Assembly: GCA_965223325.1 (NCBI GenBank)
Contig: CBDCWI010000001.1
Location: forward strand, 1,888,001 to 1,952,000
Direction: 5' to 3'
From: Candidatus Multivoradales bacterium
GTDB lineage: Bacteria; Acidobacteriota; Thermoanaerobaculia; Multivoradales; Multivoraceae
Length of the DNA stretch: 64,000 bases
This document shows, piece by piece, positions 1,259 to 59,390 of this stretch. The position numbers and the translations under genes were made by a program. Position 1 is the stretch's first letter, and each line of letters begins with the position of its first letter. The notes below the pieces were generated by a model that was given only the letters and a program-made list of their open reading frames with translations, ran no database searches and was not told the origin of the DNA.

Positions 1259-1265
1259 GACGGCG

Positions 1266-1301
1266 CTCTCACAGAAGCTCTCACAGGAGCCCTCACAGGA
1301 G
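1266..1301. repeat. Three 12-bp tandem copies of the hutU 3' end/stop codon
   Basis: ctctcacagaag ctctcacaggag ccctcacaggag. On the minus strand TGA occurs at 1295-1293, 1283-1281 and 1271-1269, all in the same frame. Confidence 0.8.
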
Positions 1302-4513: not shown

Positions 4514-4569
4514 GCTCAGAGTCCTTTCGAAATTGAGCTCGGAACGTAGCGCGTTGCACGCTACCACCG

Positions 4570-4596
4570 GGAACCGAAGGGCGAACGGCGGAGTCT
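4570..4596 (+). promoter_or_regulatory. Possible ECF (RpoE-like) promoter upstream of tonB
   Basis: GGAACC-N17-GTCT, about 40 bp before the ATG at 4634. Confidence 0.35.
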
Positions 4597-4633
4597 CACC
4601 CGAGGAGTCGAGGTTCACCCGAAGAGGTGCACC

Positions 4634-29418: not shown

Positions 29419-30378
29419 ATGGGAGCAAAACCGAGATACGTACCAACGACCGACAGCGGGCCGGAACCAGTCATGCTGACCGCCCGCATTACCAACGGAA
29501 CCTTCCTGCTCAAGCCCGACTCTGAGCAGCGATCACACATGAACGGCATCATCGGCCGCGCACAGCGCAAGACCGAGATCCCCATCTACGCCGTCGACTA
29601 TCAGGTCAACCACCACCATTTCCTGGTCGGTGCACGAGACGCCCAGCAGCTGGCGGACTTCATGTACCGCGTCCAGCAGCAGACGAGCGTCGAGATCCGC
29701 ATTCGCCATGGCTGGAAGGGCCCGAAATGGGAAACGCCCTACAAACCGTCCTTTATCGGGCGCGACCCTGCCGATACGTCGAAGCGTTTCCGCTACGTCC
29801 TGGCGCAGGGCTGTGCGGCGGGCCTGGTGTCTTCACCTCTCAAGTGGCCTGGGGTGACCGTCGCGCGGGCCTTGTGGGAAGGGAAGTTCGAGCTCGAGGG
29901 CGAGTGGGTCGACCACACGGCCTACAGCCGGGCCAAGCGTACGAAGGCTGGGCGTCACTTGACGAAGAAGGACTTCACGAAGAAGGAAACGGTGGTGATT
30001 TCGAAGCTCCCGGGCCTTGACCACCTGAGTGACGAGGACTACTGCGAGTGGGTGCGCGAGATGATTCGCGGGATCGAACGCGAGACGCGAGCGCGTCATA
30101 AACGGGAAGGCACGAAGCCTGCCGGCCAGTGGAAGCTCTTTCGGTTGAGCCCTTTCGGGACTCCCAGGAAAATGGCTCTGGGCCCTTGTCCGCTGGTGAT
30201 TGCCAGCAATGAGGACGAGCAGCAGCGGTTGCTGGCTGCTTTTGACTGGGTGTGGCGGGCGCACCGGCTGGCGCGGGACCGTCAGCGTGAGGGAGAACTC
30301 GACGTGAAGTTCCCAGAGGGGACGTTTCCGAGCCCGCGACCCTTCGAGACGGTCCAGGCACTGAGGGCCGGCCCTTGA
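29419..30378 (+). mobile_element. REP-associated tyrosine transposase (RAYT, Y1 HUH superfamily)
   Basis: T.R...G.FLL.P N-terminus, IYAVDYQVNHHHFLV (HUH), W..PY, candidate catalytic Tyr in RYVLAQG..AGLV..P..WPG, C-terminal FPEGTF. Confidence 0.85.
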
Positions 30379-30651: not shown

Positions 30652-31233
30652 TCAGCCTTCCTCGATCGATTCGTGCAGGCGATCGCGAAGGGCCTTGATC
30701 TGGGCGATTGCTTTGCCGTCGAGGACTGCGCGGAAGTCGTCGTCCCAACCCTTGACCACGACCTCGATGGTCAGGGCGTTGGCCAGTTCGCCGAGCGCAT
30801 CTGCTGACAGTACGCCGACGACCGCCTCGCCTCGCCGTTTGTTGGGCTCGGTGTCGTGGCGCACAATGCGCAGCTCGCGTTTTGGGTGATTGTCGGCCTG
30901 GACCCAGAAAGTGTGCGGCACGATCGCCTCGCCGCGCATCGAGATCCAGAGCACTGCGACCAGACCGGCGCCGCGCTCTTCGACAATGCGCAGCTCGCCT
31001 CGACGTGCTTTACCACGCGGGGCGTCTTCGCTGAGTTTGAGACCACCAGTGGCGGTTGCCGTGGCCCTGGGCCGACGGTTGCGCAGCAGGGAGCGAACGA
31101 GGTCGTAGAGATCAACGCCGAGAACCTGCGCTTCTGCAGGACCTGGGAGCGCCAGTTGCGGCGGAACTCCGAAGAGTAGGGCCACAGTAACCGCCATGGC
31201 CGGCCGAAGACGGGACCGAGCGTCGGGGCTCAC
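30652..31233 (-). CDS. Secreted hypothetical protein
   Basis: Signal-like N-terminus (...PAEA-QV); 4-bp overlap with the ankyrin gene stop. Confidence 0.6.
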   Translation of the reverse strand: MSPDARSRLRPAMAVTVALLFGVPPQLALPGPAEAQVLGVDLYDLVRSLLRNRRPRATATATGGLKLSEDAPRGKARRGELRIVEERGAGLVAVLWISMRGEAIVPHTFWVQADNHPKRELRIVRHDTEPNKRRGEAVVGVLSADALGELANALTIEVVVKGWDDDFRAVLDGKAIAQIKALRDRLHESIEEG

Positions 31234-31961
31234 AGCGGTTCCCCCAGCAGGTAGCTCTCGAGACCCAAGGCGCGGGCTTCACTGTCACCGCTCTCGGTAT
31301 CTCGACTGGCGGCTACAGCATCAGCGTGGATCATATGTTCGCCGAAGCAGAGCGCATCGAGCACCGCCGCAGATCGCAGGTGCCAGCTCGCCCAGGTCAG
31401 AGGTGAGTCTCCGTTCGCGTCGCGGGCATCGACCTTCGCACCCGCCGCGATCAGTTTCCGAATCGAGCGCAAACTACCGAAGGCGGCTGCCCGGTGAAGT
31501 GGCATCTCACCACGGGTTCGCACATCACGCATGAACGACCCTGTCTCTGCGCCGGCTCTAGTCCTCACGTTCACCTCGGCACCGTGCGACAGCAACACGT
31601 CGACGACTCGGTCGGAGCGCCCGTTCGCACGCTTGGTGAACGCAGCGTGCAGCGGCCGCTCGAGGGTCTCTGGCTGTGAATGATTGACATCGGCACCTGC
31701 CTCGACCAGAAACTGCACCAGGCGCCAATGCCCATGGAAGACAGCACCGTTGAGATCGAGGTTCTCTCCTAGCGACGCCAACGACTCTCCGCTGTCCACT
31801 AGAGCGCGCACCGCGCTCACGTCGCCGTAGTAGGCACACCAACGGATGACCGGAGTCCCGTTTCCATCGCGAACCGCGGAAGAACCACCATCGGCCAGCA
31901 ATGAGAAGACCAGATCGGTGCGGCCCGCGGCGATGCGTTCGATGTACTTGGGAACTTGCAT
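31230..31961 (-). CDS. Ankyrin repeat protein
   Basis: GTPVIRWCAYYG, GHWRLVQFLVEAGADVN, ERPLHAA, GEMPLHRAAAFG, GDSPLTWA. Confidence 0.9.
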   Translation of the reverse strand: MQVPKYIERIAAGRTDLVFSLLADGGSSAVRDGNGTPVIRWCAYYGDVSAVRALVDSGESLASLGENLDLNGAVFHGHWRLVQFLVEAGADVNHSQPETLERPLHAAFTKRANGRSDRVVDVLLSHGAEVNVRTRAGAETGSFMRDVRTRGEMPLHRAAAFGSLRSIRKLIAAGAKVDARDANGDSPLTWASWHLRSAAVLDALCFGEHMIHADAVAASRDTESGDSEARALGLESYLLGEPL

Positions 31962-32074
31962 GAGATGCTCCTGCCCTCGTGAACCGTCGGTTTTGACTAT
32001 TCTTCCATCTGTCGCATCCCTCAGCGGTCGCGCCGCCACCGTGCGCCCGCGCGAGAACTGACCCCAACACCCTC

Positions 32075-33649
32075 ATGGCCACATCACCCGACATCACCAC
32101 CGCGGCCCTCGAGTCGCGCGCCTGGCCCTTCGCCGAAGCCCAGAAAGTCGTTGAACGCCTGGCGGGCACGACGCCTGAATACGCACTCTTCGAGACCGGC
32201 TACGGGCCCTCCGGCTTGCCGCACCTGGGGACTTTCGGTGAGGTTGCCCGCACCACCATGGTGTTACGCGCCTTCGAACTGCTCAGCGACATCCCGGCGC
32301 GCATGATCTGTTTCTCGGATGACATGGACGGCCTGCGCAAAGTCCCCGACAACATCCCCAACGCATTGGAGATGGCGCCGCACCTGGGCAAGCCGTTGAC
32401 GGAGGTCCCCGACCCCTTTGGCACCCACGAGAGCTTCGGTGCGCACAACAACGCGCGCCTGCGTTCCTTCCTCGATCAGTTCGGTTTCGAGTACGAGTTC
32501 TACTCGTCGACGGAGTGCTACAAGAGTGGCCGTTTTGACGACGCACTGCGCACCGTGCTCAGAAACTACGACCGCATCCTGAAGGTCATCCTGCCGACAC
32601 TGGGTGAGGAGCGCCGCAAGACCTATTCGCCGTTTCTTCCTGTTTGCCCCAAGACGGGCATCGTGCTCCAGGTGCCGATGCTCGAGGTGGACGCTGATGC
32701 CGCAACAGTCACCTTCGAGGACTCCGAAGGCGAGCGCCAGACGGTCTCGGTCACCGGGGGCAACGTCAAGTGCCAGTGGAAGGTCGACTGGGGGATGCGC
32801 TGGCACGCCCTCGGTGTCGACTATGAAATGTCTGGCAAGGACCTGATGGAGTCGGTGAAGCTGTCGAGCACCATCTGTCGCATCCTCGGCAGCAAGCCGC
32901 CAGAAGGCTTTACCTACGAACTGTTCCTCGACGAGAACGGCGAGAAGATCTCAAAGTCGAAGGGCAACGGCCTGACGATCGAAGAGTGGCTGCGCTACGG
33001 CACTCCCGAGAGCCTGTCGCTCTACATGTTCCAGAGCCCGCGCAAGGCCAAGAAGCTCTCCTTCGACGTTATCCCTCGCACGATGGACGACTATCGCACC
33101 TGGGTGCGCAAGTACCACGAGCAGGAGCAGGTCGACCGGTTCAAGAACCCGGCGTTTCATATCCACGGCGGCGATCCGTCGGCCGAGGACATGCCGATCG
33201 AGTTCTCGATTCTTCTCAATCTGGTAGCCGGAGCCCATGTCGAAGAAAAGGACGCGCTGTGGGGGTTCGTCTCCCGCTACCTGCCCGACGCATCGCCGGA
33301 AACGCACCCGACACTCGACCGAATGCTCGATCACGCGCTGCACTACTACCGCGACTTCATCCTGCCCAACCAACAGTTCCGCCCCGCCACCGACACCGAA
33401 GCCGAAGCGATGCGTGAGCTGGCAGTTGAGCTCGCGAAGATCCCGGAGGGTGTCGAGCCCGAGCAGTACCAGACCGTCGTCTATGAGGTCGGCAAGCGCT
33501 ATCCCTTCGATTCGCTGCGCGACTGGTTCTCCGCCCTCTACCAGGTGCTCCTCGGTCAGAAACAAGGTCCACGCATGGGCAGCTTCATCGCGGTTTATGG
33601 GCGCGACGAGACGATCGCGCTGATTGCAGAGAAGGTCGGCGAGGCCTAG
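32075..33649 (+). CDS. lysK: Lysine--tRNA ligase, class I (LysRS1)
   Basis: AWPFAEA, ETGYGPSGLPHLGTF (HIGH-like), SDDMDGLRKVP, KISKSKGN (KMSKS-like), GPRMGSF. Confidence 0.96.
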   Translation: MATSPDITTAALESRAWPFAEAQKVVERLAGTTPEYALFETGYGPSGLPHLGTFGEVARTTMVLRAFELLSDIPARMICFSDDMDGLRKVPDNIPNALEMAPHLGKPLTEVPDPFGTHESFGAHNNARLRSFLDQFGFEYEFYSSTECYKSGRFDDALRTVLRNYDRILKVILPTLGEERRKTYSPFLPVCPKTGIVLQVPMLEVDADAATVTFEDSEGERQTVSVTGGNVKCQWKVDWGMRWHALGVDYEMSGKDLMESVKLSSTICRILGSKPPEGFTYELFLDENGEKISKSKGNGLTIEEWLRYGTPESLSLYMFQSPRKAKKLSFDVIPRTMDDYRTWVRKYHEQEQVDRFKNPAFHIHGGDPSAEDMPIEFSILLNLVAGAHVEEKDALWGFVSRYLPDASPETHPTLDRMLDHALHYYRDFILPNQQFRPATDTEAEAMRELAVELAKIPEGVEPEQYQTVVYEVGKRYPFDSLRDWFSALYQVLLGQKQGPRMGSFIAVYGRDETIALIAEKVGEA

Positions 33650-33748: not shown

Positions 33749-34252
33749 ATGAGCGACTCAGCCGCCACACTCTGCCTCCGCCCCGCCGAAGCGTCTGACA
33801 CGGCCCTCGTCCTCCGGTTCATTCGCGAACTGGCGGAGTACGAAAAGCTGCTCGACGAGGTGGTGGCAACCGAGGAGATGATCCGTGAGGCGCTCTTCGG
33901 CGACCACCCGACCATTGAGGTGACGATCGCTCTATGGCAAGGCGAACCGGCGGGCTTCGCGCTCTACTTCCACAACTTCTCGACTGTCCTGGGCAGGCAC
34001 GGCATCTACCTGGAAGACCTCTTCGTTCGGCCAGCGTTTCGGGGCCGGGGAATCGGCAAGGCGCTACTGGCGCATCTGGCACGCCTGGCGGTCGAACGCG
34101 GCTGCGGACGCCTGGAATGGGCGGTGCTCGACTGGAACGAACCGGCGATTGGTTTCTATCAGTCGATTGGCGCCCGCACGGTCGACGAATGGACGGCCTT
34201 CCGCCTGAGCGGCAAGGCACTCTCCGAACTCGCCGCAGAGCACCTCGCATGA
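33749..34252 (+). CDS. GNAT N-acetyltransferase (SSAT/diamine acetyltransferase-like)
   Basis: IRELAEYEK, IYLEDLFVRPAFRGRGIGKALL, RLEWAVLDWNEPAIGFY. Confidence 0.93.
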   Translation: MSDSAATLCLRPAEASDTALVLRFIRELAEYEKLLDEVVATEEMIREALFGDHPTIEVTIALWQGEPAGFALYFHNFSTVLGRHGIYLEDLFVRPAFRGRGIGKALLAHLARLAVERGCGRLEWAVLDWNEPAIGFYQSIGARTVDEWTAFRLSGKALSELAAEHLA

Positions 34253-35124
34253 GCGAAGCGCCCTACGTCCGCTACATGGAACGAACCCGCGATTGGTATC
34301 GCGCCCTCGGCTACCAGGTGGACTACCGCTGGGCCGAGCGGCACGCACCGGAACTCACACGGCTTGCCCAGCCGCTCGCCGACACCGTCGTCGCCCTCGT
34401 CACCACGGCCAGCCTCGCAGCGCCCGAAGGCTGGAGTGAGGGGCGCCCGAGCCTCGGGAAGCGGGTATGGTCGATTCCCCTCGACCGACTCCCCGAGAAC
34501 CTCTTTACCGACGACACCAGCTGGGCGAAAGAATCGACCCACACGGACGATCGCGAGTCGTACCTGCCGCTCGCCCACCTGGAGCGCGCCGCCCTCGAGA
34601 ACCGCATCGGTTCGCTCGCCCCGCGGGTCCATGGCCTCCCCACCGAATACTCACATCGCGCAACCGAAGAACGCGACGCCCCCGAACTCCTCCTTCGCCT
34701 GCGAAGAGACGGAGCACAAGCCGCCCTCTTCGTGCCACTGTGACCGGTTTGCCACCAGACCGTGAGTCTGGCCGCCAGGTACCTGGAAGAACGGGGCATC
34801 GCAACGGTAGTAGCGAGCTCTGCTCGAGACATCACGGAGCACTGTGGAGCGCCGCGGGTCCTGTTCACCAATCACCCGTTGGGTAACCCCATCGGCAGTC
34901 CCTGGGATCGGGCCACGCAGAGGGAAAACACCCAGCGTGCGCTCTCGCTGCTCGAGTCTGCGGTCTCCCCCGGGGAGACTGTGCTCTCGCCGACTGAATG
35001 GCAGGGGAAAGCCAGCTGGCAGCAGGCGTACATGAGCCTCGACGGCGAGGACCCAGAAGAACTGCTCGAGCGCGGACGAGCCCGGCGGCGTTTGCGAGAC
35101 GAGGCCAACGGCCGCACGCGATGA
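34249..35124 (+). CDS. PrdB/GrdB-like selenoprotein (UGA 34741-34743 read as Sec; U-x-x-C)
   Basis: ATG 34249 overlaps the GNAT stop. The frame continues across TGA as ...[29 protein letters not shown]..., ending at a TGA that overlaps the smoC ATG. 291 aa. Family motifs VALVTTA and D.ESYLPL..L......RIGSLA. Confidence 0.85.
34755..34771 (+). promoter_or_regulatory. Candidate bacterial SECIS hairpin
   Basis: ccagac-CGTGA-gtctgg, stem starting 12 nt after the UGA, with G in the apical loop. Confidence 0.6.
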
Positions 35125-36284
35125 TCCCCGAGAGCCCAGCGATCCCCGTCAGAACGAAGCTGTCCGCTGCCGAAGTGGCCTGGTTCAGCGCCCTGTGCTC
35201 AGACGACTACGAGTTCCTCGGGGTCCCTGATGGCAGACTGCGTAGCTCCTTCGCGCATTGCGCAGCGATCGTGCGTTCCGCCGACCGGCTTGGTTACGAC
35301 AACATCCTCCTGCCGAGCAGCTATCAGGTCGGCCAGGACCCACTCGTTTTTGCAGGCGCAGTCGCTCCGATGACCGAGCAGCTCTCCCTTCTGGCGGCAG
35401 TTCGTTGTGGTGAGGTGCACCCGCCCATGCTGGCGCGCGCGATTTCCACGCTCGACCATCTCCTCGAGGGTCGGCTGACGCTCAACATCATCTCTTCCGA
35501 CCTTCCGGGGGAAACGCTCGCGTCCGAAGCACGCTATCGCCGCTCGGCCGAAGTGATCGAGATTCTCCACCAGGCCTGGACCGCCGGGGCGATCGAGTTC
35601 CACGGTGAGTTCTACGACCTCGAGTTACCGACGACTGCACCGGTCGCGCCCTTCCAGCAGAACGGCGGTCCGCTCCTCTACTTCGGTGGCTACTCTGAAG
35701 CGGCGCGGGCCCTCTGTGCAAAACACTGCGACGTCTACCTCATGTGGCCCGATACCGAAGGCGGACTGGGCGCAACCATGCAGGACCTGGCCGAGCGCGC
35801 AGCAAAGTACGATCGCCAGCTCGACTTCGGACTGCGAATTCACGTCATTGTGCGCGAGACCGACGAAGCAGCGCGCCGGGCGGCAGATCGGCTGGTGTCG
35901 CGACTGGACGCCGAAGAAGGGTTGGCGATCAAGCAGCGCGCGCAAGACGGTGCTTCTGCCGGGGTGCTCCGCCAAGACGAACTGCGCAAGAAGAGCGACG
36001 ACGATTGGATCGAGCCCGAAGTGTGGAGCGGCATCGGTCGTGCGCGATCCGGCTGTGCAAGTGCCATTGTCGGTGACCCCGACACCGTGGCGCGCAAGCT
36101 CGAGCGCTACCTCGACCTGGGCATCCGCGCCTTCATCTTCTCCGGCTACCCCCACCTCGAAGAGTGCGAACTGTTCGCGCGCTATGTCCTCCCGAGGATT
36201 CCGCGCCTACGCCTCTCTGAGGTTCAGGGAAGGCGGCCCTCGAGCCCTCCTGAGACGCCCCTTACAACCGCCACGAGGCGCTAG
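35121..36284 (+). CDS. smoC: Sulfoquinovose monooxygenase (LLM flavin-dependent, SmoC/SquD-like)
   Basis: [76 protein letters not shown]. Matches my recollection of Agrobacterium SmoC rather than SsuD; adjacent to an smoB-like gene. Confidence 0.85.
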
Positions 36285-36300
36285 CCTTCAGAAGGTACCA

Positions 36301-37242
36301 ATGAGAAGAATTGCTCTTCACCGTAGCCAGACCGACTCTGGCGCCGAGCTATCACTTCCCGCCGTGACCTACGGCTGCTGGCGCCTGGCCGACGACCCCG
36401 CCGGAACAGAACCGGCGATCGTGCAGAAGAAGGTCGAGACCTGCCTCGAGCACGGCATCAGCGCCTTCGACCACGCCGACATCTACGGCGACTACCGGTG
36501 CGAGGCACTCTTCGGAGACCTCCTCGCGCAGCAACCACAGCTCCGCGAACAGATCCAGTTGATCAGCAAGACCGACATCGCACTCGTCTCGGCGTCGCGC
36601 CCCGAACATCGGGTCAAGCACTACGACACCTCGGCGCGGCACATCGAAGAGTCGGTCGAGCGCTCGCTCAGAAACCTTCGAGCCGAAACCCTGGACCTCC
36701 TCCTGCTGCACCGGCCCGACCCCCTGATGGACGCCGACGAGACGGCCCATGCCCTGCAGGCACTCTTCGAGAGCGGCAAGGTCACCCACTTCGGGGTCTC
36801 CAACTTCCCCTCGTCACAGTTCGAGCTCCTTCAGGCCCGCCTGGACCTGCCGCTGGTCACGAACCAGATCGAGCTGTCACTCCTCGAACACGCAGCATGC
36901 ACGAACGGCACCCTCGACTTCCTGGCGCAACACCGCATTGCACCGATGGCCTGGTCCCCTCTTGGCGGTGGACGCTTGTTTACGGGCTCCAGCGACCGAA
37001 TACGCGGCGTACGTTCGGTGCTCGACGCCCTGGCAGTGGAACGCGAGCTCGAGGTCTCCGACCGCTCGCGCATGCAACTCGCCCTGGCGTGGATCCTGCG
37101 CCTTCCTTCGCAGCCGATCGTGGTCATTGGAACCAACAAATCGCAACGCATCGCCGCCTCGGCTGAGGCTTCCGAGATCGAACTCAGTCGCCAGGAGTGG
37201 TTCCGGCTCTACGAAGCTGCTCTAGGCCAGGAAGTTCCGTGA
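36301..37242 (+). CDS. smoB: Aldo/keto reductase, SmoB/SquF-like (6-oxo-glucose reductase)
   Basis: YGCWRLADD, DHADIYGDY, RVKHYDT, LLHRPDPL, GVSNF, TNQIELS, PMAWSPLGGG; directly after smoC. Confidence 0.8.
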   Translation: MRRIALHRSQTDSGAELSLPAVTYGCWRLADDPAGTEPAIVQKKVETCLEHGISAFDHADIYGDYRCEALFGDLLAQQPQLREQIQLISKTDIALVSASRPEHRVKHYDTSARHIEESVERSLRNLRAETLDLLLLHRPDPLMDADETAHALQALFESGKVTHFGVSNFPSSQFELLQARLDLPLVTNQIELSLLEHAACTNGTLDFLAQHRIAPMAWSPLGGGRLFTGSSDRIRGVRSVLDALAVERELEVSDRSRMQLALAWILRLPSQPIVVIGTNKSQRIAASAEASEIELSRQEWFRLYEAALGQEVP

Positions 37243-37294: not shown

Positions 37295-39097
37295 ATGCTT
37301 CAAACCCTCGATCTGGTCGTCTTCTTCGCCGCTCTCGCTGCGGTGATGGGGATCGGCCTGTGGGCGGCCCGCAACGAAGACACGAGTGAGGATTTTTTCC
37401 TCGCCGGCCGCACCATTCGTTGGTGGGGTGTGGCCGGTTCGGTCTTTGGCTCGAACGTCAGCGCCAACCACCTTGTGGGAATGCTCGGCATTGGCTTCTC
37501 GATCGGTTTCGCCCAAAGCCATTTCGAACTCGGCGCCATTGCCGCCTTGATGCTCCTGGCCTACGGCTTCCTACCGGTCTACCGCAAACTCGGGGTCTAC
37601 ACCCTGTCGAGCTACCTCGGCCAGCGCTACGACGGTCGAAGTCAAACGCTCTATGCGCTCATTCTCCTGGTGGTTGCAGTCGTTCAGCTGACGGCCGGCT
37701 TCTACATCGGCTCGCGCTCACTCGGGCTCCTGCTCTCGGGCACCGTGCTCGAGCTGAGCTACGCCGTCGGAGTCGTCGCGCTGGTCATCGTGACCGCGAC
37801 CTACACGGTCGTCGGCGGGCTCAAAGCTGTCATCTACACCGATGTCATGCAGTCGATTCTGCTCTTGTTTGCCGGGGTCGGGATTGCGATCCTGACCTTC
37901 CAACAGCCGGAAGTGGGTGGCTGGCTGGGCATGATGGCGCACGACGGTGCCCGCCAGGTCGCTGAGCAGAAGATGCACCTCTACCTGCCGAGCTCGCACC
38001 CCGACTTGCCGTGGTCGGGAACGCTCTCGGGGCTTCTGCTCTTGCACTGCTTCTACTGGTCGACCAACCAGACCATCGTGCAGCGCACCCTCGCTGCACA
38101 CTCGGACCGCGACGCGCGCCTGGGCATTATCGTCGCCGGCTTTCTGAAGCTGCTCATTCCGTTCTTTGCGATCGCCGGCGGTGTGGCGGCGGCGCAGCTT
38201 TTCGAGATCCGCTTTCCCGATCGTCTGATCGACCCCGACGCGGCGACCCCAGAGCTCATTCGAACGGTCGTCCCGGCCGGTTACGGATTGGTAGGCATCG
38301 TGATGGCAGGGCTGTTGGGTGCCATTCTGTCGTCGATCGACTCGCTGGTGAACTCGGCCTCGACGCTTTTCACCTTCGACATCTACAAACGCTTTGTGAA
38401 ACCCGAGGCGGACGACAAGGAGTGTCTCCTGGTGGGCAAAGTGGTGCTCACCGTTCTTCTGCTCGTGTCGGCGACCCTCGCGCTCCTGACCTATGACCCC
38501 ACCGGTGGCGGCAACTTCTTCCTGCGGGTTTCGAGTCAGGCCGGCCATTTCACCCCCGGCCTGGTAACCGCCTTCGCGCTCGGCATGTTCTGGCGCGGCG
38601 CCAAGGCAAGGGGGGCCGCGGTTTCGATTGTGCTCGCACCCGTCTTTTCCTGGGGCATCGTTGCCGCCCACCATGCCTGGTTCGGCACCGTGCCCTGGAT
38701 CGCCTCGTTGCTCGGTAGTGACCTGAACTTCCTGCACCGCGTCCTGGCCACGGTGCTCTTTGCTGCCCTGGTTCACATCCTGGTGAGTCGCCTTTCTCCG
38801 AGCAGCAGCGATAGCGCGGTTGGCGAACGGTTCACCTTCTTCGCTCTCTCGGGTGCCGACCCTGTCCAGTTCAGCCGGCTCCTGGGAGTCCTCGTTGGGC
38901 TCGCGATCGCCTGGCTGGTACTCGGCATCACCGTCGATCGCGGCATGGTCTCGAACAGTTTCGCTGCTCTGGTCGCTGCCGCCACCGCCTGGATACCTTT
39001 CGCGCCCTATCTCGTTGGCCGGTCCCTTCGCGACGACCGTTGGTGGGCGGCCACCCTCTGTAGCGCCACCATGGCCATCATGTTCTTCTTTTTCTAG
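37295..39097 (+). CDS. Sodium:solute symporter (SSS), candidate sulfoquinovose(-glycoside) importer
   Basis: DFFLAGR, SNVSANHLVG, GGLKAVIYTD..Q, YWSTNQTIVQR, SSIDSLVNSASTLFT.D. Confidence 0.9.
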   Translation: MLQTLDLVVFFAALAAVMGIGLWAARNEDTSEDFFLAGRTIRWWGVAGSVFGSNVSANHLVGMLGIGFSIGFAQSHFELGAIAALMLLAYGFLPVYRKLGVYTLSSYLGQRYDGRSQTLYALILLVVAVVQLTAGFYIGSRSLGLLLSGTVLELSYAVGVVALVIVTATYTVVGGLKAVIYTDVMQSILLLFAGVGIAILTFQQPEVGGWLGMMAHDGARQVAEQKMHLYLPSSHPDLPWSGTLSGLLLLHCFYWSTNQTIVQRTLAAHSDRDARLGIIVAGFLKLLIPFFAIAGGVAAAQLFEIRFPDRLIDPDAATPELIRTVVPAGYGLVGIVMAGLLGAILSSIDSLVNSASTLFTFDIYKRFVKPEADDKECLLVGKVVLTVLLLVSATLALLTYDPTGGGNFFLRVSSQAGHFTPGLVTAFALGMFWRGAKARGAAVSIVLAPVFSWGIVAAHHAWFGTVPWIASLLGSDLNFLHRVLATVLFAALVHILVSRLSPSSSDSAVGERFTFFALSGADPVQFSRLLGVLVGLAIAWLVLGITVDRGMVSNSFAALVAAATAWIPFAPYLVGRSLRDDRWWAATLCSATMAIMFFFF

Positions 39098-40351: not shown

Positions 40352-42349
40352 CTACAAACGCGACTCGACGTACTCGAGGCTCGCTTTCGCCCGCGGATCG
40401 TCGGGTGCAAGAGCAACCAGTTGGGTAAAAACCTCCTTGGCCTCACGCCAGCGCTCCTGACTCGCAAGCAGCACTCCGAGATCGGCGAGTGCAGGCAGGT
40501 AGCGGGCGTCGCGCGCGAGAACGCTGCGGAGCCCTTCTTCGGCGACGTCGAGATCGCGCCGCCCCATGTAGACGGTGGCGAGTTGGTAGAGGAGCTCGAT
40601 GTTGGCCTCGTCTCTCGCCAGGTTGTCGCGAGCGCTCTCGAGTGCCTCGTCCATTCTCTCGAGGGCCAGGTAGGTGCTGGTGCGAAGTGCCCGCATCGAC
40701 AGATCGCTCGGGTCAGCCTCGATGGCTAGCGGAACGAAGGTCGCCGCCTCGTCGAGGCGCCCGAGGTCAAACGACAGGCGTGCCAGGGCTCTCGTGTACA
40801 GGCCGGAGCCGCCGGAGATAGCGAACGCACGACGGTAGGCCTCGTAGGCTGGCTCGGGCTGGCCCGATTCTTCGTAGGCCACGGCGAGGAACTGCCAGGC
40901 GTCGAGCAGTCGCGGATGGCGGTTGACGGTTCGCGCCAGAAGTTGCACGGCGTCCTGCGCCCTTCCCAGCCGCAGACTGTCGATGCCTCGCTGCAGGGTC
41001 GCAAGTGACTCGATCTCCTGACGCGGGTCGGGCAGGTCGGTCGCTGGCAAAGTGGCTTCGCTGCTCAAGTAGCCGAGCGACAAGAGCGCCTCGCGATCTT
41101 CCTCTTCTGCGGCGCTGCTATCTCTAGCCTGGGGCGGCTCGATCGAGGCCTCCGCCAGGGCAGCTCGCAGAGGCTCTGCTCGCTGCCCACCGAGGTCGTT
41201 CTGCTCGCCCGGATCTACTGCGAGGTCGAAGAGCTCACCGTAGGCACCTTCGATCCAATGGAGGTCACCCTCGATTACCGAGGTCAGTCCATGCCATCCC
41301 AGGCGCAGCTGCGGATAGAACGTCTCGGCGAAGATCGGGCGCTGGGGATGTTCCGCGAGCTCGAGAAGAGTCGGCGCCGGGTTGCCGAGAGGGGCAGCAC
41401 CGCCAGGGGCCACGAGTGCGAGCAAGGTCCCAGGCACGTCGCTCAGTTGAGCAGGCTCGGTCACCGACTGGCCTCTGCGCTCGGCGCCCGGCAACTTGAC
41501 GATCAGCGGAACCTGAAGAGCCTCGCGGTGCAGCAGGATGCCGTGTTGGTCCTCGCCATGCTCGCCGAGACCTTCCCCGTGATCCGAGAGTAGAACGACG
41601 ATCGCCTCGTCGTAACGCTCGAGACGACGCAGCTCTGCCAAGAGCTCGCCCACCAGGGCATCGACCGCTGCGATCTCGCCGTCATAAGGGTGTGCGACCT
41701 GATCAAAAGGAGGAGGCGGCTCATACGGCGCGTGCGGCTCGTAGAAATGCACCATCAAAAAGAACGGCTCTTCGCCGAAACCGTTCAGTAACTCTCTGGC
41801 GCCCTCCAGCACCTCGCGACCATCGCGCTGGGTTTCAGCAGCGGTCGCACGCACGAGCTGCTCGATCTCGTCGTCGTAGAACTCGAAGCCCTGAGCGATT
41901 CCTGTCGCACGCCGCATGACGAAACTCGAAACCACCGCCGCCGTCCGGTAGCCCTCGGCCACCAGACGCTCAGCAAACGTCTCTATGTCTTCCGCCAGGC
42001 GAAAGCCCGAGTTGTCTCGCACCCCGTGTTGATGCGGCAGGAGGCCAGTCAAGAGCGACGCATGGGCCGGCAGAGTGAGTGGAATCGGGCTGTAGGCGCG
42101 CTCGAACAGCAGACTGTCGGCGCGCAATCGATCGATGGCCGGCGTGGCGACGCCATCGTAACCATAGACCGGCAGATGGTCGGAGCGCAGGGTATCGATT
42201 GAGATCAGGAGAATCGGCGGCTTTGTCCCAGCCACAGCCTCCGACCCGGGACTCTCCTGCGGCTCAGCTCCCTGACAGGTCAGTAGAAGGAAGCCGGCGC
42301 CGGCCGCCAGGAGAGCGTGTTGCCGTTTCGATGTCCACACGCTGTTCAT
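40352..42349 (-). CDS. Sulfatase-like hydrolase with C-terminal TPR repeats
   Basis: LISIDTLRSDH, PLTLPAHASLLTG, HFYEPHAPY, SDHGEGLGEHGE..HG, LLSLGY, then TPRs; signal peptide. Confidence 0.9.
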   Translation of the reverse strand: MNSVWTSKRQHALLAAGAGFLLLTCQGAEPQESPGSEAVAGTKPPILLISIDTLRSDHLPVYGYDGVATPAIDRLRADSLLFERAYSPIPLTLPAHASLLTGLLPHQHGVRDNSGFRLAEDIETFAERLVAEGYRTAAVVSSFVMRRATGIAQGFEFYDDEIEQLVRATAAETQRDGREVLEGARELLNGFGEEPFFLMVHFYEPHAPYEPPPPFDQVAHPYDGEIAAVDALVGELLAELRRLERYDEAIVVLLSDHGEGLGEHGEDQHGILLHREALQVPLIVKLPGAERRGQSVTEPAQLSDVPGTLLALVAPGGAAPLGNPAPTLLELAEHPQRPIFAETFYPQLRLGWHGLTSVIEGDLHWIEGAYGELFDLAVDPGEQNDLGGQRAEPLRAALAEASIEPPQARDSSAAEEEDREALLSLGYLSSEATLPATDLPDPRQEIESLATLQRGIDSLRLGRAQDAVQLLARTVNRHPRLLDAWQFLAVAYEESGQPEPAYEAYRRAFAISGGSGLYTRALARLSFDLGRLDEAATFVPLAIEADPSDLSMRALRTSTYLALERMDEALESARDNLARDEANIELLYQLATVYMGRRDLDVAEEGLRSVLARDARYLPALADLGVLLASQERWREAKEVFTQLVALAPDDPRAKASLEYVESRL

Positions 42350-42449
42350 CAGCCTAAGTCTGCCGAAACGATCGAAACGAACGGCCCGACGGTACACGGC
42401 CCTGGGACGAGTCGCTGACTGCGATTGCACCGATCTCGAGCCCTTGATG

Positions 42450-42475
42450 TGAAACAAACGCCGTTTCGAGGCGTC
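42450..42475 (+). promoter_or_regulatory. SigW/SigM-like ECF sigma promoter
   Basis: TGAAAC-N16-CGTC about 40 bp before the ADOP start; shares TGAAACAAACGCC with 9913. Confidence 0.65.
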
Positions 42476-42513
42476 CAGCACCTTGATCCCGTAAATCCGA
42501 GAGAGGAAGGTCC

Positions 42514-45033: not shown

Positions 45034-45939
45034 ATGAGCAACGCACTGGAACACCCTGGAAGACTCGGCGTCTGGACGTGGATCGACGCCTTCTCCTCTG
45101 AACAAGCCGCGGACTTTGCCAAGCAACTCGAAACGTGGGGCTACTCCACCCTTTGGATCCCCGAAGCCGTCGGGCGTGATCCCTTCGCCCTGATCGGCTA
45201 TCTGGCAGGCCAGACCGAAACTCTCAACTTCGCCACCGGCATCGCCAACATCTACGCCCGTGACCACGTCACGATGAAGGCGATTCATCAGACTCTTTCC
45301 GAGATGCTGCCAGGCCGTTTCATTCTCGGTCTGGGCGTCTCGCACCCACATCTGGTTTCGCGCCTGCGCGGGCACGAGTGGAAGAAACCAATTCCCAAGA
45401 TGCGTGGCTACCTGGAAGCGATGAAGGGTGCGATCTATCACGGGCCGAAGCCTGAGCTCGAAGCTCCCATCGTGATCGCAGCGTTACGTCCGCTGATGAT
45501 GGGGCTCGCGCGCGATCATGTGCGCGGTGCCCATCCCTACCTGGTGACTCCAGAACATACCCAGCGCGCGAGAGAAATCCTCGGTGACGGCCCGTGGTTG
45601 TGCCCGGAACAGAAGGTGATTCTCGAAACTGACGCCGAAACCGCACGAGGCGTTGCGCGCGGCCAACTGACGCCCTACCTGCGGGCGCCCAACTACCAGA
45701 ACAATCTTCGCGAGATCGGCTTCGAGGACAGCGACTGGCAAGACGGAAAGGCGAGCGATCGCCTGATCGACGCGCTCGTCGCCTGGGGCGATGTCGACAC
45801 TATTCGCGAACGCATCGAGGCGCACTGGAGTGCCGGCGCCGACCATGTTTCGATCCAGCCGTTCCGTCCCGACGGAGCTCCCGGGCCCGACATGAAAGCA
45901 CTCGAAGTGTTGGCACCGGCTACCGAGCGTGCGAGCTAG
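45034..45939 (+). CDS. LLM-class oxidoreductase, probably F420-dependent (TIGR03620-like)
   Basis: WIPEAVGRDPF, ATGIANIYARD, GRFILGLGVSH, AALRPLM, GAHPYLVTPEHT, AGADHV. Confidence 0.85.
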   Translation: MSNALEHPGRLGVWTWIDAFSSEQAADFAKQLETWGYSTLWIPEAVGRDPFALIGYLAGQTETLNFATGIANIYARDHVTMKAIHQTLSEMLPGRFILGLGVSHPHLVSRLRGHEWKKPIPKMRGYLEAMKGAIYHGPKPELEAPIVIAALRPLMMGLARDHVRGAHPYLVTPEHTQRAREILGDGPWLCPEQKVILETDAETARGVARGQLTPYLRAPNYQNNLREIGFEDSDWQDGKASDRLIDALVAWGDVDTIRERIEAHWSAGADHVSIQPFRPDGAPGPDMKALEVLAPATERAS

Positions 45940-47926
45940 AGGCCTGCTGAAGAACTCCCGCGAGGCTGAGCGCGGGGATCTGGGCTCTCTGTTCGTGCCG
46001 ACGCGAGGAGGCGATGTCTGTGCATCGTTGACGAGTCGTCGGTGCGGACGGCGAGCCCAAACCCCCGCGCCCGCTGGGTTTGACGGCGTGGGCCTCGCTG
46101 CAGCACGGCGAACGCTCTACGATGGAGCACAGCATCGCATTCGCGCACGGCGCACCACATCGAGACCCACGGCGCTCAAACTCAGCCACACGAGAGTTCT
46201 TCAGCAAGCCCCTAGCTTGCTCACCGCGTTTGCGGTGATGCTCCTGACTCTGCCGCTGGCCGCGCAGGAACCACCAGCGCCGCAACCCGAGGCCGACCAG
46301 GACCGCGAAGCTCCGGGCGACCTGATCACCACCGAGACCTCGCTCGGAAAAGTCGTCGGTACCGAAACCTTCCTGGGCGGTTTGAGCTTCCGCGGTATTC
46401 CGTACGCCGAGCCCCCGGTTGGATCACTACGCTTCAGGGCGCCGAAGGCAAAGAGCCCCTGGCCTGGCATCTTGAACGCCAAGGAGTTCGGGCCAGCTTG
46501 CCCGCAGATCGCAGATCCACTCGAAGGGATCCCGGAAGAACTCGGTGCCCTCGACAACGAAGACTGTCTGTCGATCAACGTCTGGACCCCGGGTCTCGAC
46601 GAGGCCGCGCGCCCGGTCATGGTGTGGATTCACGGTGGTTCCAACGTCGCCGGCTCCAGCCGCTCACCGCTCTACGATGGCTCGGTGCTTTCTGCCCGTG
46701 GCGATGTGGTGGTGGTGTCGTTCAACTACCGCCTCGGCCTGTTGGGTTGGCTCGACGTCACTCAGTTCGGCGGCCAGAACTACGCCGGCGCTGCCAACAA
46801 CGGCATGCGCGACCAGATTCTGGCGCTACGCTGGGTGCAGGAGAACATCGGCGCTTTCGGCGGCAACCCCAACAACGTCACCGTCTTCGGAGAGTCGGCC
46901 GGGTCGATGGCGGTTTCAACCTTGCTCACCTTGGCGCGTCCCGAACGCTTGTTTCGCGCCGCGATCCTGCAAAGCGGCGTGACCTTCTCCACCGACCTCG
47001 AAAGCGCCAAGGCGATGGCTGCCGACTTCTTCGAGCGTGCCGCCATCACCGAGTCCAAACAGCTCAGAGAGATGGCGACTGCCGATCTTCTAGCGGCACA
47101 AAAGCGCGCTCTCGATACCTACCAGGGAACCGACGGTGACGTCATCTTCGTCACGCGGCCGATCGAAGAACCTCTGACCGCCACTCCCTTCGAGGCTGTG
47201 CGTGCCGGGAATGCCGCCCAGGTATCGCTGGTGCTCGGGACTACCGAGGACGAGATGCGCTACTGGTTGCACTACCTACCAGAGCTGCGCGATACCCATC
47301 CTGCCGACCTCGGCCTCGGCCTGTCTCCGGAGAACCTCGAGGCATTGCTGCTCCCCTACCGCGAGAACACCCAGTACAGCTCTGCCGGTGATCTGTCCCT
47401 GGCGCTCCTCAGCGACCTCTACTTCCGCATGCCGACTCTCCTACTCGCCGAGGCGCAGGCGGTTCATACGCCGAACGTCTGGCACTATCTCTTCGCCCGG
47501 GACATCCCGCGCTCTGATCTCGGCGCCGCTCATGCCGCCGAGCTACCTTTCGTCTTCGGAACCCTCGGCCTTCGCGTCGCCGCCCCGCTGACAGGCCTTC
47601 CGCTCGATCACCAGGAACGCTCACAGAACGCGAAACTCGCCACGGCAATGCAAGACCTGTGGCTCGGCCTCGCGATCTCGGGCGATCCCAACGCCAGCGC
47701 CAACGAGGCCCTGCCGCTGTGGTCACGCTACGACGCAGCCGAACGCGCGACCCTGCGAATCGAGGACGACTTCACCGTGGTTTCTGATCCCGGCGCTCCC
47801 ATGCGCGAAGCGTGGCTCGCGGGGTATGGCCGTGAACTCCTGCGCCAGGTCTTTGGGCCCGGTCTCTTCGCTGCGTCTCCTGGCGAGTCCTCCGAGCCCA
47901 GTGCGGGAGGTGACAACGTTCCGTAG
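45929..47926 (+). CDS. Secreted type-B carboxylesterase carrying an in-frame MITE in its signal peptide
   Basis: FRGIPYAEPPVG.LRF, EDCL.INVW, WIHGG, NYRLG, FGESAG, AAHAAEL. Removing the MITE restores MRASLLTAFAVMLLTLPLAA-QE. Confidence 0.9.
   Translation: MRARGLLKNSREAERGDLGSLFVPTRGGDVCASLTSRRCGRRAQTPAPAGFDGVGLAAARRTLYDGAQHRIRARRTTSRPTALKLSHTRVLQQAPSLLTAFAVMLLTLPLAAQEPPAPQPEADQDREAPGDLITTETSLGKVVGTETFLGGLSFRGIPYAEPPVGSLRFRAPKAKSPWPGILNAKEFGPACPQIADPLEGIPEELGALDNEDCLSINVWTPGLDEAARPVMVWIHGGSNVAGSSRSPLYDGSVLSARGDVVVVSFNYRLGLLGWLDVTQFGGQNYAGAANNGMRDQILALRWVQENIGAFGGNPNNVTVFGESAGSMAVSTLLTLARPERLFRAAILQSGVTFSTDLESAKAMAADFFERAAITESKQLREMATADLLAAQKRALDTYQGTDGDVIFVTRPIEEPLTATPFEAVRAGNAAQVSLVLGTTEDEMRYWLHYLPELRDTHPADLGLGLSPENLEALLLPYRENTQYSSAGDLSLALLSDLYFRMPTLLLAEAQAVHTPNVWHYLFARDIPRSDLGAAHAAELPFVFGTLGLRVAAPLTGLPLDHQERSQNAKLATAMQDLWLGLAISGDPNASANEALPLWSRYDAAERATLRIEDDFTVVSDPGAPMREAWLAGYGRELLRQVFGPGLFAASPGESSEPSAGGDNVP
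45940..46211. mobile_element. 272-bp MITE with CTAG target-site duplication
   Basis: Left end aggcctgctgaagaactcccg versus reverse complement of the right end gggcttgctgaagaactctcg (18/21). CTAG at 45936-45939 and 46212-46215. No transposase. Confidence 0.88.
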
Positions 47927-57350: not shown

Positions 57351-59390
57351 TCAGCCGTCGACGTAACCCAGGGCCTCGAGGCGCTCGAGGGTTTCCTGGT
57401 CGTAGGCGGCGCCGGTGTTCTCCTCGATCTCGCGCAGGCTCTCCCACAGCGAGGCCAGGAGCGCACGGAACTCGCGGACCCTTCTCTTCTTGCGCAGGCG
57501 CAGGTTGTCGCGCTCCTTCGGATCCTGATCGAGGCGGTAGAGCTCGTCGTACGAAGGGCGCTTCGGGAAGTGGATCAGCTTCCACGGCGGCGCACGCAGA
57601 ACCCGCATTTCCGGCCCTGTCTGGTTGGCAGCCGAAAGCACCGGCGGCCGTGGCGGCTGGCGTTCACCGGCACGCTTGCGCGTCAGGTGAACTTCGAAGC
57701 TGCGCCCGGAGAGTTGGCCGGGTTCTATCGGCAGGTCGTAGCGTTCGGCCATCGTCGGAAAGATGTCGATGTGTGAAAGGAGCATCGCATCCTGGACCGT
57801 CTCCTCGGGAGCGCCTGCCCTTCCAGGGCGCGGTCGGACCAGGAGCGGAACGCGCAGGAGCTCCTCGTACATCGCATGTCCGTGTCCGTAGGTCTCTGGC
57901 TCTCGATCTCCGGTGGTTCGTGCACGATGCTCATCCGAAGGCATCATCTCGCCATGATCGGAGACGATCCAGATCTCGGTTTGCTCCGGCGGGAGGAACG
58001 ACGCTGTGTTCTCGAGCAGAGCGGCGAGCTCAGCAACGACGAAACGCGTTTCGTTCCAGTAGAGCTCCTCCTGCCCCGCCGCCCAGGGAGCCGGTGGTGG
58101 TTCAGCACGCGGGCGTTCATGCAGCGGAGCGTGCGGATCCATGAAGTGAACCCAGGCAAACAACGGTAGGCCACTCTTGGTCACTTCCGGCAGGCGACGT
58201 TCGAACAGCCGCCGCACACGCGGTGCAGGCGCATAGATTTCGCGCTCGATCCAACCAGCGCGCACGAACGGGGTGAGCGTTGGAAGCTTGCCGGTAGTGG
58301 CCTGGAGGACTTCGAAGCGATCGAAGCCGCGGGAGATGCCACTCGCTGGGTGGAGAAGCGGGTTGGTCACCAGCCCTTCGGTGGCGTAGCCCGCCGCCCG
58401 AAAGCTCTCGGCCAGGGTGCCGACTTCAGGCGAGAGGGCACCGATCGGGCGACCGATGTCCAGGCCACGGGTCAGTCCGAAGCCGTGCTCCTCTGGGTAG
58501 CGGCCGGTATGAATCGAGCCCATTGAGGGCGCCGTCCAGGGGGCCGCCGCGACCAGCTGGGAGAACTCGACGATCGGCCCGAGGGCCTTCTGGAGACGCG
58601 CGCCTTCGGCGGTCTCAGCCAGCACCTGGGTAAACACGTCGTGGCGTTGGGTGTCGATGACCAGCAACAACACGTGCGGCGCATCCGACGCGGCCTCGAC
58701 ACGCTCGGCCGGCGCGTCGAGCTGCCGGGATTCCGACGGCCAACGATCGGCGCGCACCAGGGCAGTGACCACGACAGCGGCCAGCAGCGCTCCGATCGCC
58801 AACCCTGCGACCAGCGCCCGAACAGAAAGGCGGCGCGCCGCGAAGATCAGCCCGAGCGCGGCGAAGGCAAGGAGAGCATCGAGTGCGAGGGCGAGCGGTT
58901 CGAAGGGTAGTCGCACCAGGTTGCGGTTGACCGCAAGCCCGAGGGCGATCGCCAAAGAAAAGACCCAAGCGCTCCAGAAACGTCGGGTGCGCTCGAGGCC
59001 ACCTGCCACCCCCACTGCCACCAGCGGAATGGCCGCAACCACGACGACAGTGACGAGAAGCGCCGCCACCATGCCCACCCGGCCTGCCAGCGCCTGTTGT
59101 ACCCGTTCGAAGACGGCCGGCAGCTGGATGGCGAGCATCGTCCAGGCGAGAAGCTCCGTCGAACGGAGAGGCGCAGGTGCAGTCCGCGCGGCGATCCGGG
59201 CGCCGAAACCAAGGAGCATCGCAACGACTGAGGCCGCAACCACTCCCAACAACAGGTAGAGCGGCAAGTGCTCGACTTGCGGCAACAACCACTCCCCCAG
59301 GGTGAGGTAGACGGACACCACATCGATGAGCACTGAACAGCAGCCGGCCAGGAGGCCAACCATGGGCACGCGCAAGAAAGAGTTGTTCAA
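57351..59390 (-). CDS. Membrane-anchored sulfatase-like / alkaline-phosphatase-superfamily protein
   Basis: About 7 N-terminal TM helices; LLVIDTQRHD, APWTAPSMGSIHTG, HFMDPHAP, SDHGE, GHGH, RLEALGY. Confidence 0.88.
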   Translation of the reverse strand: MNNSFLRVPMVGLLAGCCSVLIDVVSVYLTLGEWLLPQVEHLPLYLLLGVVAASVVAMLLGFGARIAARTAPAPLRSTELLAWTMLAIQLPAVFERVQQALAGRVGMVAALLVTVVVVAAIPLVAVGVAGGLERTRRFWSAWVFSLAIALGLAVNRNLVRLPFEPLALALDALLAFAALGLIFAARRLSVRALVAGLAIGALLAAVVVTALVRADRWPSESRQLDAPAERVEAASDAPHVLLLVIDTQRHDVFTQVLAETAEGARLQKALGPIVEFSQLVAAAPWTAPSMGSIHTGRYPEEHGFGLTRGLDIGRPIGALSPEVGTLAESFRAAGYATEGLVTNPLLHPASGISRGFDRFEVLQATTGKLPTLTPFVRAGWIEREIYAPAPRVRRLFERRLPEVTKSGLPLFAWVHFMDPHAPLHERPRAEPPPAPWAAGQEELYWNETRFVVAELAALLENTASFLPPEQTEIWIVSDHGEMMPSDEHRARTTGDREPETYGHGHAMYEELLRVPLLVRPRPGRAGAPEETVQDAMLLSHIDIFPTMAERYDLPIEPGQLSGRSFEVHLTRKRAGERQPPRPPVLSAANQTGPEMRVLRAPPWKLIHFPKRPSYDELYRLDQDPKERDNLRLRKKRRVREFRALLASLWESLREIEENTGAAYDQETLERLEALGYVDG

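Follow-up and report, generated by a model that had tools for sequence, protein, structure and literature searches.

A gene split by an in-frame UGA in a Candidatus Multivoradales genome probably encodes a stand-alone PrdB-like selenoprotein

Two short open reading frames (ORFs) lie close together on the forward strand of a 64,000-nucleotide stretch of DNA from Candidatus Multivoradales bacterium (contig CBDCWI010000001.1, positions 1,888,001 to 1,952,000; hereafter the window), and the question raised by this locus is whether they are two genes, the remains of a broken one, or a single selenoprotein gene in which an internal UGA is read as selenocysteine (Sec). A first-pass annotation made from the sequence had proposed the last, with a hairpin resembling a selenocysteine insertion sequence (SECIS) behind the UGA and a likeness to the D-proline reductase protein PrdB. 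Our analysis indicates that the internal UGA almost certainly encodes selenocysteine and that the two short 'genes' are one, with the following elements (coordinates are those of the window).

34249-35124, + strand: PrdB-like selenoprotein gene, 291 residues (translation with TGA as U, full-length homologues, match to TIGR04483, G+C content by codon position)
34741-34743, + strand: in-frame UGA, almost certainly read as selenocysteine, residue 165 (Cys/TGA alternation, short homologues ending before this column)
34750-34752, + strand: codon of Cys168, putative resolving cysteine of the U-P-V-C motif (invariant in both homologue alignments; AlphaFold2 model)
34751-34775, + strand: SECIS, with upper stem 34755-34760/34766-34771, loop CGUGA at 34761-34765, a 2x2 internal loop, and lower pairs G34751-C34775 and C34752-G34774 (sequence, fold, family pairing, covariance model)

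The two entries of the ORF list, 33934-34743 and 34762-35124, are both on the + strand and share one frame, and translation with TGA as U confirmed the first-pass view that the ORF ending at 34743 and the one starting at 34762 belong together, yielding a single 291-residue protein that runs from ATG 34249 to the stop codon at 35122-35124 (included in the gene). The sole internal TGA of this frame, at 34741-34743, corresponds to residue 165 (U165) in the motif L-U-P-V-C-H-Q. The start codon overlaps the stop of the upstream gene, which encodes a GNAT N-acetyltransferase (ATGA), the stop codon and the ATG of the luciferase-like monooxygenase gene that follows overlap in the same way (ATGA, 35121-35124), and the G+C content by codon position is of the coding type in both halves (0.73/0.51/0.79 and 0.68/0.55/0.75). 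The protein database keeps the halves apart, as P0002 (164 residues, N-terminal) and P0122 (120 residues, C-terminal), both assigned to a contig of 2,144,090 bases; since they are deposited as separate proteins, standard annotation has split the gene into two ORFs, as had been anticipated.

A homologue search of the protein database returned 260 matches, 120 of them listed. Apart from the window's own half P0002, these were mostly proteins of ~291 residues with 41-54% identity to the window protein, the best identity to anything found among the matches listed being at most 54%; for some of them, in Bradyrhizobium for instance, the sources give the name 'D-proline reductase (dithiol) PrdB' or 'glycine reductase'. 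We built one alignment of 27 full-length homologues (A1) and a second of 71 full-length homologues plus the window protein (A3, 72 members). The U165 column is Cys in 27/27 and 71/71 homologues, respectively, and C-P-V-C-H-Q, with Cys168, is invariant across both sets. The Sec/Cys alternation to which the first-pass annotation had looked falls at exactly this column, and neither Trp nor any other non-Cys residue occurs there in the 71 homologues. A search among shorter proteins gave 105 matches, one of which is the window's own C-terminal half P0122. Among the other 104, 78 (140-159 residues) end in [P/A][L/I], exactly one residue before the U165 column, 16 begin just after it, and 10 are other fragments; many of these short homologues bear the name 'hypothetical protein' and are encoded on long contigs, from Reyranella, Rhodospirillaceae, Pseudomonadales and other bacteria.

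A scan of species-representative genomes located at least 588 loci encoding a relative, the best 80 of which were kept for all locus counts. In these 80 the codon at the U165 column is TGA in 75, TGC in four and TGT in one, and because one of the two search patterns demanded Cys at this column the sampling is, if anything, biased against TGA forms. According to record titles and tree labels, carriers belong to the Alpha-, Beta- and Gammaproteobacteria, Myxococcota, Chloroflexota, Thermodesulfobacteriota, Rokubacteria and Actinomycetota (Ilumatobacteraceae, Acidimicrobiia). The presence of TGA in 75 of 80 relatives from several phyla marks it as the ancestral state of the clade and excludes a private nonsense mutation. 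In a quick maximum-likelihood tree, calculated from 98 sequences, at least 4-5 changes of the Sec/Cys label are required, and the window protein lies inside a large Sec-rich clade, without resolved neighbours.

Some placements on this tree deserve mention in their own right. A Rokubacteria TGA form (L066:8487-8531, …VPS-U-PVCHQ…) groups with an otherwise all-Cys clade of Bradyrhizobium, Tardiphaga and Acetobacteraceae, and the Cys form P0068 and one Cys clade nest among Sec forms of Reyranella. Five metagenome-assembled genomes (MAGs; L035, L030, L017, L002 and L012), several of them titled 'Bordetella parapertussis', 'Asaia bogorensis', 'uncultured Enterobacteriaceae' or 'uncultured Spirochaetales', have Betaproteobacteria, Acetobacteraceae, Alphaproteobacteria and Myxococcota MAGs as tree neighbours; either these titles are questionable or there has been gene transfer from one lineage to another.

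The hairpin described in the first-pass annotation as ccagac-CGTGA-gtctgg is present, CCAGAC (34755-34760) and GUCUGG (34766-34771) forming a 6-bp stem that closes the 5-nt loop CGUGA and begins 11 nt past the UGA. A stem-loop directly 3' of the UGA with a small G-containing apical loop is the criterion by which bacterial SECIS elements have been recognized (PMC1088965), and the window hairpin has this form. In all 76 TGA forms (75 relatives and the window; 70 distinct) the 45 nt from the TGA align gap-free, with the consensus UGA-CCnGUCUGCC-ACCAGAC-CGUGA-GUCUGGU-CGCC, in which a 7-pair upper stem begins 10 nt after the UGA. Across the 70 distinct TGA forms the 9-pair structure, comprising seven upper and two lower pairs, is paired in 94.8% of 630 cells, a figure that falls to 20-33% if the 3' partners are displaced by 1-3 columns. 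Columns 18/28 change from G-C to A-U in 11 distinct sequences and to G-U in four, columns 15/31 change from C-G to U-A in three, and the observed count of double changes was reached by 0/500 shuffles.

As the hairpin overlies the invariant residues H-Q-T-V-S-L, its conservation could stem from the protein, but three controls speak against this. Third-codon-position conservation in TGA forms is 0.91 at codons 169-175 versus 0.45-0.69 in all remaining 7-codon blocks, even those whose amino acids are conserved to the same degree. The third base of codon 173, which pairs with A19, is T in 76/76 TGA forms (AGT; GGT in three) and C in all five Cys forms (AGC in four, GCC in one); AGT accounts for 80 of 969 Ser codons (8.3%) in 30 window genes. 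A covariance model made from the 75 TGA relatives, with the window left out, scores the window site at 64.2 bits (E value, E, of 3.8e-9) and has no other match with E < 1 in the 64 kb; with the same model the five Cys forms score 20.9-49.4 bits. Over the first 31 nt from the TGA the window equals the consensus but for one base, though the proteins are only ~50% identical, and so close a match of the SECIS at the nucleotide level speaks for selection that is still acting. These comparisons, in which Cys-form DNA is represented by five sequences, indicate that the hairpin is under selection in Sec forms and not in Cys forms. The first-pass proposal of a recoded UGA is supported by the Sec/Cys alternation together with a hairpin that is conserved, covarying, and under synonymous-site constraint only in TGA forms.

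The SECIS of E. coli fdhF is a hairpin within the coding sequence ~11 nt past the UGA, and its apical loop is small and has G/U in it. The window hairpin is like it in lying inside the coding sequence at ~11 nt past the UGA and in having a small loop, but the stem of the window family is short and family-specific (ACCAGAC-CGUGA-GUCUGGU), and in the window it has also lost its seventh pair. Five other TGA forms (L058:8469-8513, L059:8469-8513, L076:8481-8525, L039:8466-8510 and L069:8466-8510), from Thermodesulfobacteriota, Dehalococcoidia and Actinomycetota, have a deviant loop and 3' arm (…CCGUCAGUCUGACGG… or …GACGGUCAGUUUGACC…), and in these a hairpin displaced by a few bases can be made out by eye instead, suggesting a SECIS variant particular to these lineages within the family.

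To what family the protein belongs was addressed with curated profiles. The window protein matches the NCBIfam PrdB model (TIGR04483) with 59.3 bits (E 3.8e-16) over model positions 19-235 of 238, which does not reach the equivalog cut-off of 300 bits, and the gene should not be called a D-proline reductase. All 72 A3 members match the same model (best E 2.6e-30). In Pfam nothing matches the window protein at E ≤ 0.01, and it scores 16-20 bits against GrdH, GrdF and TIGR01918, whose cut-offs are 65-800 (TIGR01918, 16.2 versus 65.45); among the A3 members, 72/72 match GrdH and 67-70 match GrdF, GrdB or TIGR01918 (69/72 for TIGR01918, E ≤ 0.001), and PF07355 is precomputed on three of the 120 listed homologues. 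Judged by these profiles, the remote homology of the window protein to the GrdB/PrdB 'selenoprotein B' superfamily is real, its scores lying below the curated cut-offs, and the protein can be described as a stand-alone, remote member of that superfamily. One of the 72 A3 members weakly matches NF041046, 'UGSC family (seleno)protein' (E 4.2e-4); UGSC is another abundant marine selenoprotein family of unknown function.

An AlphaFold2 model made from the 72-sequence alignment is confident and of the alpha/beta type, with a predicted local distance difference test score (pLDDT) of 89.6 and a predicted template modelling (TM) score (pTM) of 0.90, and places U165 after strand 158-162, at the N-terminus of helix 166-181, which holds C168. 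This position at a helix N-terminus is the usual geometry of redox-active CxxC/UxxC motifs. The stand-alone clade also shares a conserved N-terminal segment, Y-M-E-R-T-R-x-Y-Y-R-A-L-G-Y.

PrdB is the 26-kDa selenocysteine subunit of D-proline reductase, and the window protein is like PrdB of Clostridium sticklandii and Clostridioides difficile in its near-full-model homology, its UxxC selenocysteine motif and a SECIS inside the coding sequence. It is unlike PrdB in having ~35 extra N-terminal and ~40 extra C-terminal residues, in scoring 59 bits against a cut-off of 300, and in that its family has no PrdA or PrdC nearby, no conserved operon, and hosts that are not Stickland fermenters. GrdB, GrdF and GrdH (PF07355, TIGR01918) are the substrate-specific selenoprotein B of glycine, sarcosine and betaine reductases; the likeness to these consists of weak, consistent matches to model positions ~280-406 of 435, but the window protein is without the ~280-residue N-terminal part and has no GrdA, GrdC, GrdD or GrdE nearby. 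In the literature tables, UxxC is listed as the Sec motif of PrdB (PMC2398784, Table 2; PMC13188914), so that the first-pass match of U165-P-V-C168 to PrdB agrees with the literature, whereas GrdB is listed with UxxCxxC (PMC13188914), unlike the U-P-V-C-H-Q-T of the window protein.

D-proline reductase is composed of the pyruvoyl proprotein PrdA, the Sec subunit PrdB, and PrdC (PMC9908766). The first-pass annotation had noted that no prdA, grdA or grdC partner is present, which was borne out both in the window and around the related loci: no PrdA-, GrdA-, GrdC/D- or GrdE-type domain was found among the 49 window ORFs scanned against Pfam, and no PrdA, GrdE, GrdA or GrdC domain among 23 neighbour-family representatives (clusters ranked 5-27) around the best 80 relatives. 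No neighbour family is common to more than 8 of 81 loci, and those met more often are of general kinds (short-chain dehydrogenases, enoyl-CoA hydratases, acyl-CoA dehydrogenases, TctC, AMP-binding enzymes and flavin oxidoreductases). The genes next to the selenoprotein gene in the window are as follows.

33749-34252, + strand: GNAT N-acetyltransferase gene, upstream (PF00583, E 8e-22; homologue nearby in 0/80 related loci)
35121-36284, + strand: luciferase-like (SsuD-like) flavin monooxygenase gene, downstream (PF00296, E 1.3e-54; three weak matches in 80 related loci)
36301-37242, + strand: aldo/keto reductase gene (PF00248, E 2.4e-49 on the long ORF 35605-37242; 0/80 related loci)
37295-39097, + strand: sodium:solute symporter gene (PF00474, E 3.6e-63; 0/80 related loci)

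The nearest NCBIfam model of the monooxygenase is SsuD (TIGR03565; 257 bits, cut-off 518), and the start given for the aldo/keto reductase, ATG 36301, is the first start codon past the monooxygenase stop. Of the monooxygenase context to which the first-pass annotation had drawn attention, the adjacent gene stands while a conserved link does not; with no conserved neighbours, the adjacent monooxygenase is incidental or lineage-specific and was dropped as a family-wide clue. The GNAT and monooxygenase genes are probably co-transcribed with the selenoprotein gene without being conserved partners, and in this genome a common pathway may unite the selenoprotein with the GNAT, SsuD-like monooxygenase, aldo/keto reductase and Na+/solute symporter to which it is translationally coupled.

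We put the probability at roughly 0.8 that the locus is one selenoprotein gene, with SECIS-driven insertion of Sec at position 165 of a stand-alone PrdB-like redox protein. We infer from the sequence features described above that insertion takes place in the organism itself, in which case the SECIS at 34751-34775 would recruit SelB with Sec-tRNASec to the ribosome paused at the UGA (34741-34743), Sec would enter as residue 165, and a 291-residue protein would result; if selenium or SelB were lacking, translation would end with a fragment of 164 residues. In the enzyme, the selenolate would attack an electrophilic atom of the substrate, Cys168 would resolve the adduct to give a selenenyl-sulfide, and a cellular dithiol system, e.g. 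thioredoxin, would reduce the selenenyl-sulfide back. Such redox chemistry and such a reductant are the likeliest candidates, judging by the motif, its position in the fold, and the chemistry of PrdB and GrdB.

Several observations weigh against this reading. By folding alone the window hairpin is unremarkable (66 nt, -20.1 kcal/mol, z = 0.25, with 115/200 shuffles folding at least as well), and fold stability was accordingly not counted as evidence. Rfam, SECIS families included, has no match in the whole window at gathering thresholds nor in 34650-34900 at E ≤ 10. The stem is weaker in the window than in the consensus, with six rather than seven upper pairs, the seventh being lost to an A.C mismatch because Ala175 (GCC) stands for Val (GTC); a GCC codon at 175 is otherwise found only in the TGA forms L010 and L060, and 11 of 70 distinct rows are without a standard pair there. 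The terminal branch of the window protein is the longest in the quick tree (1.68 versus a median of 0.21), and of 84 columns with ≥90% conservation among the other members the protein retains 71 (85%; the others' median is 98% and their lowest 81%), so that constraint may have relaxed somewhat. No tRNA gene, and so no tRNA-Sec, lies in the window, and no SelA, SelB or SelD domain was found in the 49 ORFs scanned. For the proposed chemistry, finally, there are no conserved neighbours and no structural match: solved structures gave only three irrelevant matches by sequence profile (best E 0.081), and a fold search of the AlphaFold2 model against the PDB gave 0 matches at E ≤ 0.001 (best TM ~0.3).

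The alternative that survives best, itself unlikely, keeps the selenocysteine and makes the protein a true D-proline (or glycine/betaine-type) reductase B subunit whose PrdA/GrdE-type pyruvoyl subunit is encoded elsewhere in the genome. PrdB is indeed the best family match, nearly full-length, the UxxC motif is the one listed for PrdB (PMC2398784, PMC13188914), and some relatives are so named by their sources; but the match stays at 59 bits against a cut-off of 300 with no A3 member much better, no partner domain was found in either neighbour set, the Clostridial prd genes are clustered (PMC13188914), and the carriers are, from their record titles, mostly aerobic or facultative lineages. As no gene for the pyruvoyl subunit PrdA accompanies this one or any of the relatives examined, the protein is probably not a D-proline reductase. 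We lean, by a little over even odds, towards the stand-alone clade being no proline reductase subunit but a self-sufficient selenoenzyme with a different substrate, wrongly labelled as 'PrdB' or 'glycine reductase' over the past twenty years. Members of the clade have neither a PrdA nor any conserved gene beside them, are ~290 residues long with the N-terminal segment given above, and are distributed over at least six phyla of mostly aerobic bacteria.

Quite unlikely, too, is a pseudogene, defunct or decaying after a mutation of TGC or TGT (Cys) to TGA. In its favour, no other member diverges as far as the window protein, which has the longest branch and 13 of the 84 highly conserved columns changed; DNA of 64% GC readily yields long open frames, and no Sec machinery is seen in the window. 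Against decay, the same TGA occurs in 75 of the 80 closest relatives from several phyla, the 31 nt from the TGA are one base off the consensus with the rare pairing AGT codon kept, and the invariant catalytic-motif residues and 71 conserved columns are retained downstream as well as upstream of the UGA. Read-through without Sec, by near-cognate insertion of Trp, Cys or Arg or by a reassigned code, is very unlikely: it could be entertained in that Sec insertion is deduced from sequence and the machinery is not seen in the window, but TGA is the commonest ordinary stop, ending 17 of 30 window genes, the selenoprotein gene and the upstream GNAT gene included, which excludes a general reassignment of UGA, the alternation is strictly with Cys, and a conserved hairpin that lies as far from the UGA as a SECIS does, with a G in its small loop, is what marks SelB-dependent recoding (PMC1088965). 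Least probable of all is that the locus holds two genes, one for 164 residues up to 34743 and one for 120 residues from GTG 34762, since, although that GTG exists and both pieces are predicted database proteins (P0002, P0122), Cys-form homologues are single chains of ~291 residues (71/71), the split cuts the invariant U/C-P-V-C-H-Q motif and deletes P-V-C-H-Q-T, the GTG lies inside the hairpin loop with no purine-rich Shine-Dalgarno stretch before it, and the C-terminal halves elsewhere start at differing codons (M-CHQ.., M-SL..), as expected of gene-caller artefacts.

The rest of the window, at 64% GC, is that of a heterotroph, with histidine-utilisation genes, TonB-dependent receptors, sulfatases and a class-I lysyl-tRNA synthetase. 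Other candidates for split selenoprotein genes, consisting of open segments parted by a single TGA, were lost among spurious frames at this GC content, none of those inspected standing out. A HutH-like aromatic amino-acid lyase gene at the window edge and a urocanase gene, 2-2951 (-) and 2972-4618 (-), are followed by a gene of the M20 peptidase family. The class-I lysyl-tRNA synthetase gene (lysS), 32075-33649 (+), matches NF001968 with 839 bits; its nearest database relatives are 68-69% identical, those named being Acidobacteriota and Alphaproteobacteria MAGs, and no close sequenced relative was present in the collection searched. Just upstream of lysS lie an ankyrin-repeat protein gene, 31230-32039 (-), matched by several Ank Pfam models with E down to 1e-20, and a gene for a 319-residue protein, 29419-30378 (+), with a weak IS200-like Y1 transposase domain (E 9.8e-7). 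A second luciferase-like monooxygenase gene adjoins a carboxylesterase gene (45034-45939 (+) and 45929-47926 (+)), and there are two sulfatase-family genes, 40352-42481 (-) and 57351-59390 (-), one of them fused to tetratricopeptide repeats (TPR), making this a region rich in genes of organosulfur and ester catabolism.

Proteins of this kind have been met before. 'Proline reductase PrdB', with the motif UxxC, is the third most abundant selenoprotein family in the tables of the Sargasso Sea metagenome study of Zhang, Fomenko and Gladyshev (2005), with 42 Sec and one Cys sequence (PMC1088965, Tables 1-3), and those of the Global Ocean Sampling (GOS) study of Zhang and Gladyshev (2008) list 235 Sec and 110 Cys sequences of PrdB over 38 samples (PMC2398784, Tables 2-3), where it is among the top three selenoprotein families of many surface-water samples (PMC2398784). 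The orphan PrdB-like protein of the first-pass annotation thus stands as such, but not its novelty, because the family is already abundant in oxic ocean metagenomes. The window protein is like the Sargasso/GOS 'PrdB' in its UxxC motif, its link to pfam07355, its occurrence in bacteria of oxic waters, the excess of Sec over Cys, and in being routinely missed by annotation (PMC1088965, PMC2398784); its relatives include Tara and marine Gammaproteobacteria/Pseudomonadales records. It is unlike them in being very divergent. The Sargasso/GOS 'PrdB' would belong to the same clade as the window protein, likened to it by motif, Pfam link, Sec-richness and marine relatives rather than by sequence. These papers give the family the Clostridial function and are silent on the missing PrdA ('PrdA' has 0 occurrences in PMC2398784), and recent reviews list PrdB only as D-proline reductase (PMC9312934, PMC13188914). 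No literature on the function of the stand-alone aerobic clade or on its missing PrdA was found, subscription journals and supplementary files being outside the coverage.

The window gene is a divergent new member of a known, widespread selenoprotein family, and the recoding itself is ordinary, the family having already been catalogued. For the annotation of this genome, two 'hypothetical' fragments should become a single selenoprotein gene, codon 165 being entered as a translation exception, and the presence of such a gene implies that the organism uses selenium. The same mis-annotation affects most relatives examined (75/80 with TGA), entries of 157-159 residues called 'hypothetical protein' being N-terminal halves, and the family SECIS consensus, ACCAGAC-CGUGA-GUCUGGU at 10 nt past the UGA, offers a simple way to find and fix mis-annotated members. 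Abundant in oxic environments, with no solved structure and no known substrate, and without the partner that defines its namesake enzyme, the family is a reasonable biochemical target. If the stand-alone clade is indeed a self-sufficient selenoenzyme, this mislabelled family would be among the commonest selenoproteins of oxic waters and soils.

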